Shown in pieces: positions 1-5,890 of a DNA stretch of 64,000 bases. The DNA is from Vicinamibacterales bacterium. GTDB lineage: Bacteria > Acidobacteriota > Vicinamibacteria > Vicinamibacterales > CAVVIG01. Made by a program: the position numbers and the translations under genes. Numbering within the stretch: position 1 is the first letter of the stretch; the number at the start of each line of letters is the position of its first letter. The stretch lies in NCBI GenBank assembly GCA_035650895.1, contig DASRGT010000017.1, positions 25,130-89,129 on the forward strand, given 5' to 3'. The notes beneath the pieces are model-generated. The model was not told the origin of the DNA and made no database searches. It worked only from the letters and a program-made list of their open reading frames with translations.

Positions 1-874
1 AGTACTGGCGGTCGTTGATCGGCGGCAGCGCCTGCTCGGCGGTCGTCGTCGCGATCTCCTGGACGATGCCGTTGCGATCGGCGTGGAACAGCGTGACGAA
101 CCCGGGGTAGATCTGGCGATCGCGCGCGACGAGCAGGCGGCGGTCGGCGGCCGTGAGCCGATCGTTCGACATCGCGAGCGCGAGCGACTCCACCGCCTGC
201 GCGTGCGACGTGACGTACGACGTGATGTGCTCGGCCAGCGCCGTGACCGCTTCGTGGAGGCGGGCGGCGCCGGCCGCTTCCTGGCGCGTGGCGATCGCCT
301 GGTTGTCGAGCGCGGCGAGCAGCAGCACGGGCAGCATCGCCACGAGCACGAAGGCGTGGAAGGCGTAGCTCCGCAGCCGCATCCGCTCGGGACGCCAGCC
401 GGTCGTCACGCGGACGCGCGGCGCGAGGACGATCGAGATCAGCTCGGCGATCACGACGGCGACGAGCGAGTTGAGCAGCAGCTGGAGCGCGAGCGGCCAC
501 GCCGTGGACCGCCGCACGTCGAGGCCGATGAACGACGGCGCGACGATCAGCAGCAGGGCGACCGACGCCCAGACCATGGCGCCGGCGACGAGCGGCGACT
601 TGCCGCGCCTCGCGAACACGCCGACGACGATCGCCTCGATCGTCAGGACCGCCAGCGCCGGGCCGGCCGGGACCGTCGTGCGCAGGACCGCGGCGCCGGC
701 GACGATCGCCGAGACGACGCCGAGCGCGGGGCCGGACATGATCGCGATGGGCAGCGTCACGACGCGGCCGAGCAGCATCGGCGCGATCGCGACGCCGGAC
801 ACGACGTTGATCGCGAAGCCGACGGCGCCGCACAGCACGGCGACGCCGAGCGGCCGGAGTCCCGAGTTGTTCAT
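1..874 (-). CDS. Membrane-bound sensor protein, N-terminal part (continues beyond the window start)
   Basis: Absent from the ORF track because no stop lies in the window. Reverse-strand ATG at 874..872 opens MNNSGLRPLGVAVLCGAVGFAINVV... with about 6 hydrophobic helices, then a Cache-like segment (..RQIYPGFVTLFHADRNGIV..). Divergent from a response regulator. Confidence 0.5.
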   Translation of the reverse strand, partial: MNNSGLRPLGVAVLCGAVGFAINVVSGVAIAPMLLGRVVTLPIAIMSGPALGVVSAIVAGAAVLRTTVPAGPALAVLTIEAIVVGVFARRGKSPLVAGAMVWASVALLLIVAPSFIGLDVRRSTAWPLALQLLLNSLVAVVIAELISIVLAPRVRVTTGWRPERMRLRSYAFHAFVLVAMLPVLLLAALDNQAIATRQEAAGAARLHEAVTALAEHITSYVTSHAQAVESLALAMSNDRLTAADRRLLVARDRQIYPGFVTLFHADRNGIVQEIATTTAEQALPPINDRQY

Positions 875-907
875 GCGTGGAGCGCACATTGTATACTTCG
901 CGCACCG

Positions 908-1534
908 ATGCACGTACTGATCGCCGAGGACGATCGCGCCACCGGCCAGATCCTCGCGCGCACGCTGCAGCGTCTCGACCACGAGACGACCGTGGTCTTC
1001 GACGGCGCGCAGGCGTGGGAACATCTGCGCACGGCGACGGCGCCGACGCTGGCGATCCTCGATTGGATGATGCCCGAGCTCGACGGCCCCGACGTGTGCC
1101 GCAAGGTGCGCGCGGAGCTGCCCGAGGCGAACATGTACCTGCTGCTCGTGACGGCACGCGAAAGCCGCGGCGACGTCATCGCCGGTCTCGACTCGGGCGC
1201 GGACGACTACATCATCAAGCCGTTCGATCCGGACGAACTGCGCGCGCGCGTCGCGGTCGGCGTGCGCGTCCTGGCGCTGCAGCAGAAGCTCGCCGAGCGC
1301 GTCGCGGAGCTACAGACCGCGCTGTCCAACGTCAAGCAGCTGCGCGGCCTGCTGCCGATCTGCAGCTACTGCAAGCGGATTCGCGGCGACGATCAGTACT
1401 GGCAGCAGGTCGAAGGCTACATCGCCGAACATTCCGATGCGCAGTTCAGCCACGGCATCTGTCCGAGCTGCTACGAAACGATCTCGGCCGAGCTCGACGC
1501 GGTGGCGAGGAACAAAGCCCGGATTCAGAAGTAA
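908..1534 (+). CDS. Response regulator: receiver domain + coiled linker + C-terminal Cys/His-rich motif, with no known output domain
   Basis: C-terminal 208 aa of ORF 83..1534, ATG at 908. REC signatures: AEDD, ILDWMMP (phospho-Asp), LVTA, IIKP. Tail: LPICSYCKRIRGDDQYWQQVEGYIAEHSDAQFSHGICPSC. Confidence 0.85.
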   Translation: MHVLIAEDDRATGQILARTLQRLDHETTVVFDGAQAWEHLRTATAPTLAILDWMMPELDGPDVCRKVRAELPEANMYLLLVTARESRGDVIAGLDSGADDYIIKPFDPDELRARVAVGVRVLALQQKLAERVAELQTALSNVKQLRGLLPICSYCKRIRGDDQYWQQVEGYIAEHSDAQFSHGICPSCYETISAELDAVARNKARIQK

Positions 1535-1550: not shown

Positions 1551-2771
1551 CTACCCGATCCGCCACGGGGAGAACCCCCAGCCGCGCATCGCGTCGATCG
1601 CCCACGCGCTGGTCTTGTCCTTGTGACACGACGTGCAGGGGTTGGGCACCGTCATCCGCTCCGTCGCGCCCGGCGTGATGAATCGGAACGTGTGCGCGCG
1701 GACGTTGATGTCCGCGATCGTCTGCTCGATCTGCGGCATGTGGCAGGCGACGCACTGGCTGCCGGCCGATCCCGCGGCGTGATGCGTGTGCTGCTCGATC
1801 GTCGCCGCGTGCGGACCGTTCGGCGACTTCGGTCCGTGGCACTGCAGGCAGACGCGATCGGCGGGCGCGCGCAGGTCGGCGTTGTTCGCCGTTCCGTGGA
1901 CGTCGTGGCAGTTGAAGCAGGTGACGCCCCGCTCGTACATCCGGCTCGAGGAGAAGTCGTTCCCTTGCATTCGGTTCTTGTGGGCCGTGCCGTCGGCGAA
2001 ATACAGGAAGTCCTGCTTCCCGAGCTCGGGCGGATCGAGGCGCCAGTAGTCGCTCAGGCGCGAAGTGGGCGTCACCTCGAATCCGACCGCCCAGTCGTAA
2101 TAGCGCCCCTCGATCGGGTTCTTCAGCGGCTGCCCCTGCGAGTGGCACTGGATGCACACGTCGTTGGCGCGCACCGGATCGAGCCGGGCCGGGTTGACGA
2201 TGTTCGCGCGCGTCGGCGTCGCGACATGGTCGGCGCCGGGGCCGTGGCACTTCTCGCAGCCGACGTTCCACTCCGACGGCGTCTTCGTCCGCACGTCGTA
2301 GTTGATCGAGTGGCAGCCGTCGCACGTCGGCCCGGTCGGCCGCTGCATGTTGTCGTCGGGGTAGTGCGCCACCCACCAGTCGGTGTTCGGCGCAACCTTG
2401 TACGGCCGCCAGATCCGGTGCGCGACGTCCCACTGCGCGCCCAGCGGGAAATAGTCGTCGCCCACCTTCGTGAAGTAGCGCTGCTTCCACTTGCTGCCGT
2501 AGACGAACGCGACGTCCGCCGCCGTGAACGTGACGAGCGGATCGGGCTTCGACAGGTCCGGCAGAATCGCGTCGGGATGCGTCTTCGGGTCGCGGACGAC
2601 GTTCGCCATCCGCGTCTTCGTCCAGCGGCTGTACTGATCGGCGTGGCAGCTCCGGCACTGTGCCGATCCGACGTACCGGTTGGCGGCGGGCGCCGCCGGC
2701 GCCTGCGCCCACAGGACCGCCGCGCACCACGGCACAACGCCGAGCGCCAGGACCGTCAGCGATCGACCCAT
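1551..2771 (-). CDS. Exported multihaem c-type cytochrome (8 CxxCH motifs)
   Basis: ORF 1551..2771. Signal peptide MGRSLTVLALGVVPWCAAVLWAQA. Haem motifs: CRSCH, CDGCH, CEKCH, CIQCH, CFNCH, CLQCH, CVACH, CTSCH. Confidence 0.85.
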   Translation of the reverse strand: MGRSLTVLALGVVPWCAAVLWAQAPAAPAANRYVGSAQCRSCHADQYSRWTKTRMANVVRDPKTHPDAILPDLSKPDPLVTFTAADVAFVYGSKWKQRYFTKVGDDYFPLGAQWDVAHRIWRPYKVAPNTDWWVAHYPDDNMQRPTGPTCDGCHSINYDVRTKTPSEWNVGCEKCHGPGADHVATPTRANIVNPARLDPVRANDVCIQCHSQGQPLKNPIEGRYYDWAVGFEVTPTSRLSDYWRLDPPELGKQDFLYFADGTAHKNRMQGNDFSSSRMYERGVTCFNCHDVHGTANNADLRAPADRVCLQCHGPKSPNGPHAATIEQHTHHAAGSAGSQCVACHMPQIEQTIADINVRAHTFRFITPGATERMTVPNPCTSCHKDKTSAWAIDAMRGWGFSPWRIG

Positions 2772-2777
2772 GGCGAG

Positions 2778-3617
2778 CTACTTCCCGGCCGCGACCTGGT
2801 CGACGATGCGCCGCGCGATCGGCAGGCTGACGCCGCAGGTGGGATCGTCGACGCGGCACCGTGCGATCGTCAGATCGCAGCCGCACGTGCACGACTCGGC
2901 GTTCAGCTTCTCGAGCGTCTGCCGCCGCTTCGCGGGCGGCAGTCTGGCCAGATCGACGCCCGGAATCTCGAGCGCCTGCGCGTTCGGCCCGAGCTCCAGC
3001 TTCTGCGTCTGCTCGACCTGCTCGATCCGCGCGTTGACCGGCAGGCCCGCCAGCGCGCGCGTTTCCTGCTCGGTCGTCGCGGCGTTCAGCATGCCGACGT
3101 GCTTCTGCACGATGCGCCCCTCGCGGTCGATCACGAACGAGGTCGGCAGCGCCGCGATCCCCGGGAACAGCTTCTCGAGCTCGGGCGACGTCATCGCGAT
3201 CGGGTAGTTCATGTGGTGGTCGGCGGCGTATTTCCGCACGACCGGCGGACCGTCTTCGTCCTCGGAGATGCCGATGATCTGCAGCTGGTCGCGGTACTTC
3301 TCCTGCAGCGCGATCAGATCGGGAATCTCCGCGCGGCAGGGCGGACACCACGTCGCCCAGAAGTTCACGATGGTGACCTTGCCCTTGAACGTGTCGAGCG
3401 AGATCTCGCGGTCGTCGATCGTCCGGACGGTGAACGGCTTCGCCGCCGCGGGGTTCTTGAAGAACCGCAGCGTGCCCGACGACGTGGCCGCCGCGCTTCC
3501 CGGTTCGGCGGCCGCCGCAACGCCGTCGCCGGCGTGCTGGAACTGCCGCTCGGCCAGCCACACGGCGGCGACGACGATCAGCACGACACCGATGGCGAGC
3601 GCGCGGCGCGGGGTCAT
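2778..3617 (-). CDS. TlpA/ResA-like thiol:disulfide oxidoreductase with a Cys-rich C-terminal extension
   Basis: Internal ATG (MTPRRALAIGVVLIVVAAV, membrane anchor) of ORF 2778..3821. Thioredoxin motif FWATWCPPC. Tail contains CTCGC..C..C. Only 6 nt upstream of the cytochrome gene. Confidence 0.85.
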   Translation of the reverse strand: MTPRRALAIGVVLIVVAAVWLAERQFQHAGDGVAAAAEPGSAAATSSGTLRFFKNPAAAKPFTVRTIDDREISLDTFKGKVTIVNFWATWCPPCRAEIPDLIALQEKYRDQLQIIGISEDEDGPPVVRKYAADHHMNYPIAMTSPELEKLFPGIAALPTSFVIDREGRIVQKHVGMLNAATTEQETRALAGLPVNARIEQVEQTQKLELGPNAQALEIPGVDLARLPPAKRRQTLEKLNAESCTCGCDLTIARCRVDDPTCGVSLPIARRIVDQVAAGK

Positions 3618-3643
3618 CAACCTCACCAGTGTAAGCTGAAGCC

Positions 3644-4303
3644 GTGCGGAATCAAACGGTTGCCACCCTGATGGCCGGCGCGATCCTTCTCGCGAGCTCG
3701 TGCGCGAAATCGGAGCCCGCGCCCGCGGCCACCTCGGCGGCGCCGGCGGCCACCGCGGCGCCCGCTCGGCCTGCGCCGGCGGCGCCCGGCACCGTGACCG
3801 GAAAAGTGCCCGGTTTTGCACCCGGCGCGTTCGCCATCGTCGTGCTCGAGCCGAAGACGCCGCGCGAGTTCCCGGCGTTGACCGAAACGCCCGTGATGGA
3901 TCAGGTGGGCCAGACCTTCTCCCCGGCCGTGCTGTTCGTCCGCACCGGCCAGCCCGTCGAGTTCCGCAACAGCGACGACACGCTCCACAACGTGCACGTC
4001 ACCAACGAAGACACGCGCGAGGGGGCGTTCAACGTCGCGATTCCAACCGAGAACACGTACAGCTACATCTTCGAGCAGGACGGCTTCTATCACGTCGGCT
4101 GCGACATCCATCCCGCGATGTCGGCGGAGATCATCTCGACGACGACGCCGTTTGCGACGATGGCGTCGGCCGACGGGAGCTACGAGTTCGACGACGTGCC
4201 GCCGGGATCGTACCGGCTGACGATCTACTCGGGCGGCGCGAAAACGCAGTCGGACGTCGACGTCACAGCGTCGCCGCCACGAGGAACGCCCAGCCCAGAA
4301 TGA
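3644..4303 (+). CDS. Cupredoxin (type-1 copper) lipoprotein with a C-terminal carboxypeptidase-regulatory-like beta-sandwich
   Basis: GTG start. Lipobox LLASSC. Type-1 Cu ligands: LHNVH and GCDIHPAM (C-x2-H-x2-M). Tail: DGSYEFDDVPPGSYRLTIY. Confidence 0.75.
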   Translation: MRNQTVATLMAGAILLASSCAKSEPAPAATSAAPAATAAPARPAPAAPGTVTGKVPGFAPGAFAIVVLEPKTPREFPALTETPVMDQVGQTFSPAVLFVRTGQPVEFRNSDDTLHNVHVTNEDTREGAFNVAIPTENTYSYIFEQDGFYHVGCDIHPAMSAEIISTTTPFATMASADGSYEFDDVPPGSYRLTIYSGGAKTQSDVDVTASPPRGTPSPE

Positions 4304-5312: not shown

Positions 5313-5696
5313 TTACGCGCGGGAGAGGAGCCGCTCGGCGAGTTCGTGCAGGTCTTCGGTCCAGATCGGCTTGAAGCAGACGTCGGCCCCGAGGTCGGCG
5401 ATTTCGGTCAGCGCGTCCTCGGTCAGCGAGGCGTCGCCGGTGATGATCGTCACCGGGGTGCGCTCGTCGCGTTCCCGCAGGCGGTAGAGGAATCCCAGGC
5501 CGTTGACGAGCGGCATGCGCAGGTCGAGGATGATCGCGTCGGGACGGAACTCTTCGGTCTCGCGGAGGGCGTCCTGGGCGTTGCCGGCGGTGCGCACCTG
5601 ATGGCCCTCGAGGCGCAGAATCCCCGCGAACGTCTGCGTGACGCCCTCGTCATCGTCCACGATGAGGAGACGGCCGGGTCGGCTCATGACGATCAT
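5313..5696 (-). CDS. Single-domain (CheY-like) response regulator
   Basis: C-terminal part of ORF 5313..5867. LLIVDDDE, IILDLRMP, IITGD, CFKP. Start at MIVM (5696) or MSRP (5687). Confidence 0.8.
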   Translation of the reverse strand: MIVMSRPGRLLIVDDDEGVTQTFAGILRLEGHQVRTAGNAQDALRETEEFRPDAIILDLRMPLVNGLGFLYRLRERDERTPVTIITGDASLTEDALTEIADLGADVCFKPIWTEDLHELAERLLSRA

Positions 5697-5890
5697 GACG
5701 CGCACGCGACGGGTCGGGCGGTCACCGATTCGAGGAACAGCGCTTCGAGTTCCTGCTCGCGCTTCACGGCGTCGGCGGCCGTCGCAAAGTACTCGACGAT
5801 GGTCCCTCGCGGATGCACGACCGACAGCTTGAACGGTCCGCCGCTGGCGACGGTCACGATTTCCCACGTGACGCGCTCTGACCCCGCCAT
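5693..5890 (-). CDS. Small hypothetical protein (65 aa), translationally coupled to the CheY-like gene
   Basis: ATG at 5890 (MAGSERVTWEIVTVASGGPFKLSVVHPRGTIVEYF...). Its stop overlaps the downstream ATG (ATGA at 5693..5696). No known motif. Confidence 0.4.
   Translation of the reverse strand: MAGSERVTWEIVTVASGGPFKLSVVHPRGTIVEYFATAADAVKREQELEALFLESVTARPVACAS

Follow-up and report, generated by a model that had tools for sequence, protein, structure and literature searches.

The locus and its response regulator

The window, that is, the whole stretch of DNA that was analysed (64,000 nucleotides), carries close to its left end a response regulator gene and a second gene divergent from it. These genes and the features of the regulator are listed below.

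1..874, minus strand: divergent partner gene, cut by the left edge of the window; its N-terminal 291 aa are visible (ATG at 874)
875..907, no strand: divergent intergenic region of 33 bp, given by the two start-codon coordinates
908..1534, plus strand: response regulator gene, 208 aa plus stop, from the list of open reading frames and the translation
914..1252, plus strand: receiver (REC) domain, residues 3-115 (PF00072, E = 2.3e-22)
1061-1063, plus strand: phospho-acceptor D52 of the receiver, read from the sequence
1229..1330, plus strand: helix α5 of the receiver running on as a heptad linker or signalling helix, residues 108-141, predicted by AF2
1343..1471, plus strand: core of the C-terminal domain (the tail), residues 146-188, from AF2 models and family conservation
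1361..1372, plus strand: first CxxC (C152 and C155), invariant in alignments A2, A3 and A4
1460..1471, plus strand: second CxxC, in the form CPxC (C185 and C188); C185 is invariant, and C188 is conserved in at least 90% of sequences and invariant in A4
1463..1528, plus strand: C-terminal helix, residues 186-207, predicted by AF2 and variable in sequence across the family

The translation of 908..1534 is exactly the 208-aa protein quoted in the preliminary description, and it is 100% identical to P0260, a protein of 208 aa from a Vicinamibacterales (Acidobacteriota) metagenome-assembled genome. As judged by profile, catalytic residues and kinase context, this protein is a bona fide response regulator. 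Its receiver had been described as intact, and the complete active-site set (E7/D8/D9, D52, T82, Y101 and K104) was indeed read by eye in the translation, in addition to the PF00072 match. The best PDB matches of the receiver are those of PleD and MtrA (E down to 8e-22), and its AF2 model displays an alternating β/α pattern with pLDDT values of 88-97. When the whole protein and the tail alone were scanned against Pfam and NCBIfam, no domain besides PF00072 was found above threshold, in agreement with the earlier statement that the protein has neither a helix-turn-helix (HTH) nor an enzymatic domain. The OmpR-family equivalogs of NCBIfam matched the receiver part alone, with scores far under their cut-offs.

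The names given to this protein and its orthologues (P0260 and P0261-P0379) are in conflict with one another and are unsupported by the domains. The NCBI name of P0260 is 'response regulator transcription factor', which was probably driven by the OmpR-like receiver alone, and at JGI many soil orthologues with 82-96% identity are called 'RsbU phosphoserine phosphatase' or 'OmpR family regulator'. The RsbU name is given even to tail-only fragments of 67-116 aa; tail-bearing proteins therefore seem to have been in the training set of a KO or COG assignment. We rejected the transcription-factor and RsbU identities because their defining domains were tested and found to be absent: the Trans_reg_C winged helix of OmpR/PhoB-type factors is missing from both the protein and the tail even at E ≤ 10, and the protein, which stops 20 residues past the tail, has no SpoIIE/PP2C catalytic domain in Pfam or NCBIfam.

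A conserved four-cysteine domain at the C-terminus

The tail (LPICSYCKRIRGDDQYWQQVEGYIAEHSDAQFSHGICPSC; residues 149-188, nt 1352-1471) has the pattern CSYC-x29-CPSC, and positions 1361..1471 span the codons from the first Cys (C152) to the last (C188). We determined its conservation in 176 domain copies from the best 139 proteins, using a regular expression that permitted x29 to x31 between the motifs. The CxxC-x29-CxxC spacing was identical in all copies (176/176), and the four Cys were also invariant or conserved in at least 90% of sequences in alignments A1-A4, including alignments chosen independently of the Cys pattern. Among the remaining positions of the 176 copies, conservation was high at P150 and W165 (99% each), R159 (93%), D161 (92%), K156 and G147 (91% each), Y171 (89%), E169 (87%) and P186 (80%), and fell past C188. 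The preliminary description had placed four Cys and two His in a fixed spacing. The claim holds for the Cys but not for the His, since H175 and H182 are only partly conserved (75% and 81%, respectively, with Ser common in place of H182); these His are therefore not obligatory metal ligands, and the candidate ligands are the four Cys.

The AF2 fold of the tail is compact and confident (mean pLDDT 86-90), as predicted from an input alignment that is shallow in diversity (45-88% identity). The predicted order of the core elements is a strand, the CSYC knuckle, a short helix, a helix at residues 164-175, a strand and the CPSC knuckle, so that each CxxC is located at a strand-to-helix junction. Four conserved candidate ligands in two knuckles are present, as in a Cys4 mini-domain. 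One structural Zn2+ is most likely coordinated by the four Cys of the two CxxC knuckles, which are separated by 29 residues, and the predicted topology suggests that the four sulfurs would converge. The tail core is net acidic, with a mean charge of -1.4 in the family and -2 in the 208-aa protein, and a conserved basic patch, CK(K/R)IR, is found right after the first knuckle. The surface of the tail is nearly constant across very different sensors and phyla.

We also observed that the first knuckle, P-I-C-x-Y-C-K-x-I-R (residues 150-160), is almost the same as the opening of the zinc ribbon in bL36, PICEYCKVIRR. This match is short and insignificant (E = 0.3), and the resemblance is probably a convergence of the zinc knuckle.

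Distribution of the tail and its relation to known families

We searched 1.84 billion cluster representatives exhaustively with HMMER, using a 69-aa tail query (residues 140-208), and obtained 21,049 representatives at E ≤ 1e-3 and 14,124 at E ≤ 1e-10. Because so many representatives match and the spacing is fixed, the CxxC pattern of the tail is not a product of chance. For the phylum survey, species-representative genomes were scanned with one peptide pattern, CKKIRDDxG, and 80 loci among the matches listed placed the tail in at least 15 phyla. The hosts among the matches listed include Desulfobacterota, Nitrospirota, Acidobacteriota, Verrucomicrobiota, Bacteroidota, Ignavibacteriota, Chloroflexota, Spirochaetota, Planctomycetota, Kiritimatiellota, Lentisphaerota, Hydrogenedentota, Latescibacterota, Poribacteria, Neomarinimicrobiota and Aegiribacteria, and anaerobes are numerous among the carriers. 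The earlier statement that similar tails end many REC, PAS and GAF proteins in several phyla was therefore correct. The 64-kb window itself holds a single such tail.

The tail could be assigned to no characterised family by Pfam, NCBIfam, PDB sequence and profile comparison or Foldseek. Pfam and NCBIfam returned for the tail only sub-threshold zinc-ribbon noise (Zn_ribbon_HMPTM, Cys_rich_CPXG and DUF3039; E 0.04-0.5), and neither phmmer nor a 56-sequence profile matched the tail to any PDB sequence below E = 0.04. Foldseek found no related fold for the tail in PDB or BFVD, including no solved zinc ribbon or treble clef. In the literature, searches with motif strings, MASE6, zinc-ribbon outputs and CXXC outputs gave no description of the tail, which agrees with the earlier remark that no experimental characterisation was known. 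The tail is a real and very common domain without a database family.

Domain architectures that carry the tail

We tabulated the architectures by a Pfam scan of 84 diverse representatives and 79 genome-encoded members, a sample of 163 proteins that is biased to query-like sequences. The domains preceding the tail in these proteins were of input or transmitter types alone, with the tail behind REC, PAS, GAF, HAMP and membrane sensors, and none of the 163 combined the tail with a kinase or GGDEF domain. REC preceded the tail in 23 of the 84 representatives and 20 of the 79 genome-encoded proteins, PAS in about 8 and about 32, and Reg_prop/Y_Y_Y in 2 and 8, respectively. MASE6 (21) and HAMP (5) were also recorded in the census, and GAF, HisKA_7TM, SBP_bac_3, VUPS, PocR, dCache_3, CHASE3 and TPR were less frequent. 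Matches to T2SSE and DegT also turned up in the scan of the 84 representatives. In the genome-encoded proteins, which have 200-960 aa, the last Cys is located 10-42 residues (in one case 72) before the C-terminus. When a hybrid kinase and a GGDEF protein were compared by phmmer with 218 tail proteins, no HisKA, HATPase or GGDEF was found, and the matches consisted of receivers and coiled coil alone.

Some proteins contain two tails, in the order [MASE6-tail]x2 in many clusters and [REC-tail]x2 in some; these form dozens of distinct clusters at 50% identity and have lengths of 490-560 aa. Such single chains imitate a dimer covalently. In the two-tail examples among P0121-P0169 (e.g. P0132, P0133, P0135 and P0121), the first tail is internal rather than C-terminal.

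A Rosetta-stone type of fusion was sought as well, and the sole non-sensor fusion inspected, P0251 (a MerR HTH, half a receiver and the tail), looks chimeric and was set aside. Most of the short tail-only matches were likewise discarded, being either fragments or pieces of REC-tail or GAF-tail genes split by frameshifts in long-read assemblies. A small number of free-standing genes for a coil plus the tail seem genuine, such as that for P0400, an 84-aa protein encoded by the isolate Malonomonas rubra DSM 5091 (locus L088, 4001-4255) with a gap of 182 bp upstream. This gene is annotated 'sensor histidine kinase TtrS' and is divergent to dksA, 182 bp away. DksA is an RNA-polymerase-binding protein with a C4 zinc finger; the adjacency is a single case and may be a coincidence.

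Phasing of the linker

In the AF2 model of the full-length protein, residues 108-141 form one helix, and the block pLDDT is 91-95 up to residue 140. A heptad-like linker had been proposed from the sequence, and this was confirmed by hydrophobic residues at 9 of 13 a/d positions in one register and by the spacing within the family. The distance from the K-P motif of the receiver to the first Cys was 34, 41, 48 or 55 residues in 24 of 29 non-redundant REC linkers. The binomial probability of such a single phase is about 3e-16, a value that serves just as a guide, given that regular expressions set the anchors and that the sequences are related to one another. In the 208-aa protein the distance from K104 to C152 is 48, the modal value of the family. 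For PAS proteins, the distance from the D-I-T motif to the first Cys was 28, 35, 42 or 63 in 11 of 17 linkers, several outliers being false anchors. The helix ends at a nearly invariant L-x-G-L-L-P-I-C junction.

As read from these sequences, the stepping by seven residues would mean a continuous coiled coil whose phase matters. Heptad-stepped linkers are a hallmark of PAS-kinase linkers and are known for kinase DHp and GGDEF outputs. Such phasing also fits any pair of dimeric modules, and therefore proves rigid coupling and not the direction of information flow. A kinase-like origin of the linker was considered and rejected, as its similarity to a kinase linker is at the level of the coiled coil alone and is insignificant.

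Genomic neighbourhood

The visible 291 aa of the divergent partner consist of an N-terminal multi-TM part and the beginning of a periplasmic sensor region, and gave no Pfam match. We located orthologous loci (L001 and L002) via P0352, which is 84% identical to the 208-aa regulator. At these loci the regulator is divergent from a 1200-aa kinase with the architecture dCache_1-HisKA-HATPase_c-REC-Hpt and convergent with a TlpA-like redoxin. The divergent partner is 51% identical over all 291 aa to the N-terminus of this kinase (E = 6e-82), and this similarity makes it a presumed hybrid histidine kinase with an Hpt domain. By orthology, the regulator has a cognate histidine kinase or phosphorelay nearby, with the N-terminus of the kinase alone lying inside the window. 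The preliminary description had placed the regulator 33 bp from a divergent multi-TM Cache-like sensor; the gap and the multi-TM gene were as described, but the gene is more than a sensor, namely a hybrid histidine kinase by orthology. Next to the hybrid kinase gene, on its downstream side and in the same orientation, the orthologous loci encode a GGDEF protein (L001, 5105-6094; L002, 3247-4236), which hints that the phosphorelay may feed c-di-GMP signalling too; the matching part of the present locus falls outside the window.

On the other side of the regulator, two genes follow on the opposite strand.

1551..2771, minus strand: multihaem cytochrome c of 406 aa, with Paired_CXXCH_1, Cytochrom_c3_2 and NrfB-like matches
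2778..3821, minus strand: TlpA/AhpC-like redoxin, with the domain at residues 126-251 (Pfam)

The cytochrome c gene is located between the regulator and the redoxin. It looks like a lineage insertion, because the redoxin directly follows the regulator in L001-L004.

We further inspected ten loci with REC-tail genes in other phyla. Directly upstream and on the same strand lies a histidine kinase gene in 5 of the 10; in 3, the upstream gene encodes a single-domain receiver and is itself preceded by a larger gene. When 723 ORFs from 80 loci were clustered all against all, no recurrent neighbour of the tail genes emerged, the most shared family being present at 5 loci. The gene for the target of the tail is therefore not a neighbour of the tail gene, the usual situation with generic signalling outputs.

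Comparison with known systems

In composition the tail resembles Cys4 zinc modules, with no match to a curated family or a solved fold. In position and linker geometry it is like the coiled-coil-coupled kinase and cyclase outputs, and it is not a member of those families. The kinase DHp/HisKA and GGDEF outputs are likewise C-terminal after REC, PAS, GAF or HAMP and are reached through linkers that step by seven residues, whereas the tail is unrelated to them in sequence, lacks catalytic motifs and is no longer than about 45 residues. The C4 zinc finger of DksA/TraR and the ZAS domains combine a helical region with a Cys-rich zinc site and act by protein-protein contact. Their likeness to the tail is a functional analogy only; PF01258 and zf-HC2 do not match the tail, and their spacing and motifs differ from those of the tail.

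Rubredoxin, as in the sequence of C. pasteurianum, has the spacing CxxC-x29-CPxC with a strand before each knuckle, and the mycobacterial kinase PknG has a rubredoxin-like regulatory domain. The tail shares with both this identical spacing and a strand ahead of each knuckle, but differs in the helix predicted by AF2 between the knuckles (residues 164-175). Homology to rubredoxin was rejected, since hhalign gave a probability of 2% over 9 aligned columns and Pfam gave no match. A thioredoxin-fold CxxC oxidoreductase was rejected as well, the Foldseek matches being insignificant (E 0.96-5, TM 0.3-0.4).

The sole analogue of the tail that we found in the literature is HalOD2, an output domain of haloarchaeal regulators that is a predicted Zn finger with unknown function, which, as Galperin and co-workers suggested, may bind DNA or RNA (Galperin et al. 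2018, PMC5847659). As in the protein described here, a receiver is followed by a helical segment and then by a C-terminal pair of conserved CXXC motifs (PMC5847659). However, the motifs of HalOD2 come after a HalX-like helical part and are separated by 20-25 residues, and HalOD2 is reported from just a few halobacteria and after receivers alone (PMC5847659). The motifs of the tail are separated by a fixed 29 residues, and the tail is present in at least 15 bacterial phyla and behind many sensor types. The tail was accordingly not assigned to HalOD2: the x29 spacing and the bacterial hosts set it apart from the published description.

Proposed function of the tail and alternative explanations

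The tail domain exists, is conserved, occupies an output position behind phase-preserving linkers and is found within two-component operons. A known signalling chassis thus carries an undescribed output module. The preliminary description had suggested a phosphorylation-controlled output or interaction domain, and the position of the tail and the heptad-quantised linkers read from the sequences would fit a regulated module of either kind. We therefore propose, with a confidence that we put at about even, that a Zn(Cys)4 tail is the signal-controlled C-terminal output of a phosphorelay led by the hybrid kinase and that it acts probably via protein interaction. Under this proposal, the Hpt domain of the neighbouring hybrid kinase would phosphorylate D52; in the PAS, GAF and HAMP relatives, ligand binding would take the place of receiver phosphorylation. 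From what is known of the receiver family, the α4-β5-α5 face and the α5 coiled coil would then change register or association, the two Zn(Cys)4 tails of a dimer would be re-oriented, and the re-oriented tails would switch their binding to a target whose gene lies elsewhere in the genome. The tail would in this way fill the place of the kinase, cyclase or DNA-binding domains in other sensors. A protein target is favoured because the core is net acidic, and many inputs appear to converge on one partner, since the tail surface is nearly constant behind very different sensors. Four parts of this scheme are inferred: that zinc is bound, that the protein dimerises, what kind of target is contacted and in which direction regulation runs.

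Three other explanations were weighed against the same observations. The tail could be an additional input, namely a thiol-disulfide, zinc-release or iron (rubredoxin-like or Fe-S) redox sensor that alters dimerisation or the activity of the receiver or PAS domain. This is unlikely in our judgement, despite several features that point to it: the two CxxC, one of the CPxC type, are predicted at strand-to-helix junctions as in thioredoxin-fold proteins, thioredoxins recur (without significance) in the top Foldseek lists, the rubredoxin spacing is shared, and many carriers are anaerobic. Against these stand the hhalign result for the family profile, in which a single knuckle was aligned with rubredoxins, the lack of a Pfam match to rubredoxin or thioredoxin, and helices in the AF2 model where rubredoxin has loops and sheet. 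The TlpA-like redoxin gene is a conserved convergent neighbour, which would suit a redox function, but it is not co-transcribed with the regulator, and redoxins of the TlpA type are periplasmic. Moreover, a HAMP or receiver domain normally passes its signal to a partner on its C-terminal side, and with the tail as an input the proteins composed of PAS, GAF, HAMP or REC plus tail would be left without an output.

Most one- and two-component outputs bind DNA, and it might accordingly be supposed that the tail is a dimeric nucleic-acid-binding zinc finger and the protein a transcription factor or an RNA-binding regulator. The basic patch after the first knuckle, the precedent of HalOD2, for which DNA or RNA binding was suggested (PMC5847659), and the NCBI name of the identical protein agree with such a role. 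However, the protein has no match to an HTH or any known DNA-binding model, the core of the tail carries a net negative charge (mean -1.4; -2 here), and the tail surface is nearly constant among sensors and phyla, unlike that of DNA-reading domains diversified by their targets; we regard this explanation as improbable. More improbable still is that the tail is a zinc-stapled cap for dimerisation or stability on the coiled coil, like the zinc hook of Rad50, with the receiver or PAS surfaces doing the signalling. Heptad-phased linkers are likewise expected between two dimeric modules, tandem two-copy proteins are known in the family, and the gene neighbourhood of the 80 loci gave no partner, all of which would suit a cap. 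The nearly invariant K156, R159, D161, W165, E169 and Y171 nevertheless exceed the needs of a clamp, free-standing coil-plus-tail mini-proteins such as the 84-aa P0400 exist, and sensors with HAMP or large periplasmic domains would remain without an effector.

Possible significance of the output class

Because thousands of proteins carry the tail and no family, structure or function has been described for it, the tail is probably an unstudied signalling output. We advance only tentatively, at somewhat below even probability, the broader proposal that it represents an unrecognised and widespread output class: an effector of about 45 residues held by zinc, with one conserved target and an undescribed mechanism, in at least 15 phyla. 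If this is true, a new branch would stand beside the outputs of DNA binding, kinase activity, cyclic-nucleotide turnover, methyl-accepting function and phosphatase or partner switching. Thousands of sensors with the tail are at present annotated by their input alone ('PAS domain S-box protein', 'response regulator' or 'ligand-binding sensor'), and others wrongly carry the name of a transcription factor or an RsbU phosphatase; many of these annotations would be put right by a curated domain model. If the tail is a common effector, a whole class of one- and two-component systems would gain an assigned output once the target of the tail is found; such systems occur in Acidobacteriota, Desulfobacterota, Nitrospirota, Spirochaetota, Chloroflexota, Bacteroidota, Verrucomicrobiota and other phyla. 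Being small, self-contained and apparently phase-coupled, the tail could also serve as a compact part for engineered signalling proteins.

Additional observations on neighbouring genes

Two further genes of the window were annotated.

3644..4303, plus strand: small secreted-looking protein, cupredoxin/plastocyanin-like and CarboxypepD_reg-like, divergent from the redoxin gene
5313..5867, minus strand: receiver-only orphan protein of 184 aa, with REC at residues 68-176 (Pfam)

The start of the redoxin ORF (2778..3821) was probably set too far upstream, which gives it a long N-terminus, since its orthologue has 273 aa. At its C-terminus, the same protein is extended by about 95 residues that include a Cys-rich stretch, ESCTCGCDLTIARCRVDDPTCG, and no Pfam model covers this extension. 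The orphan receiver protein (5313..5867) begins with an Arg-rich extension of about 65 residues, which may be an over-called start.
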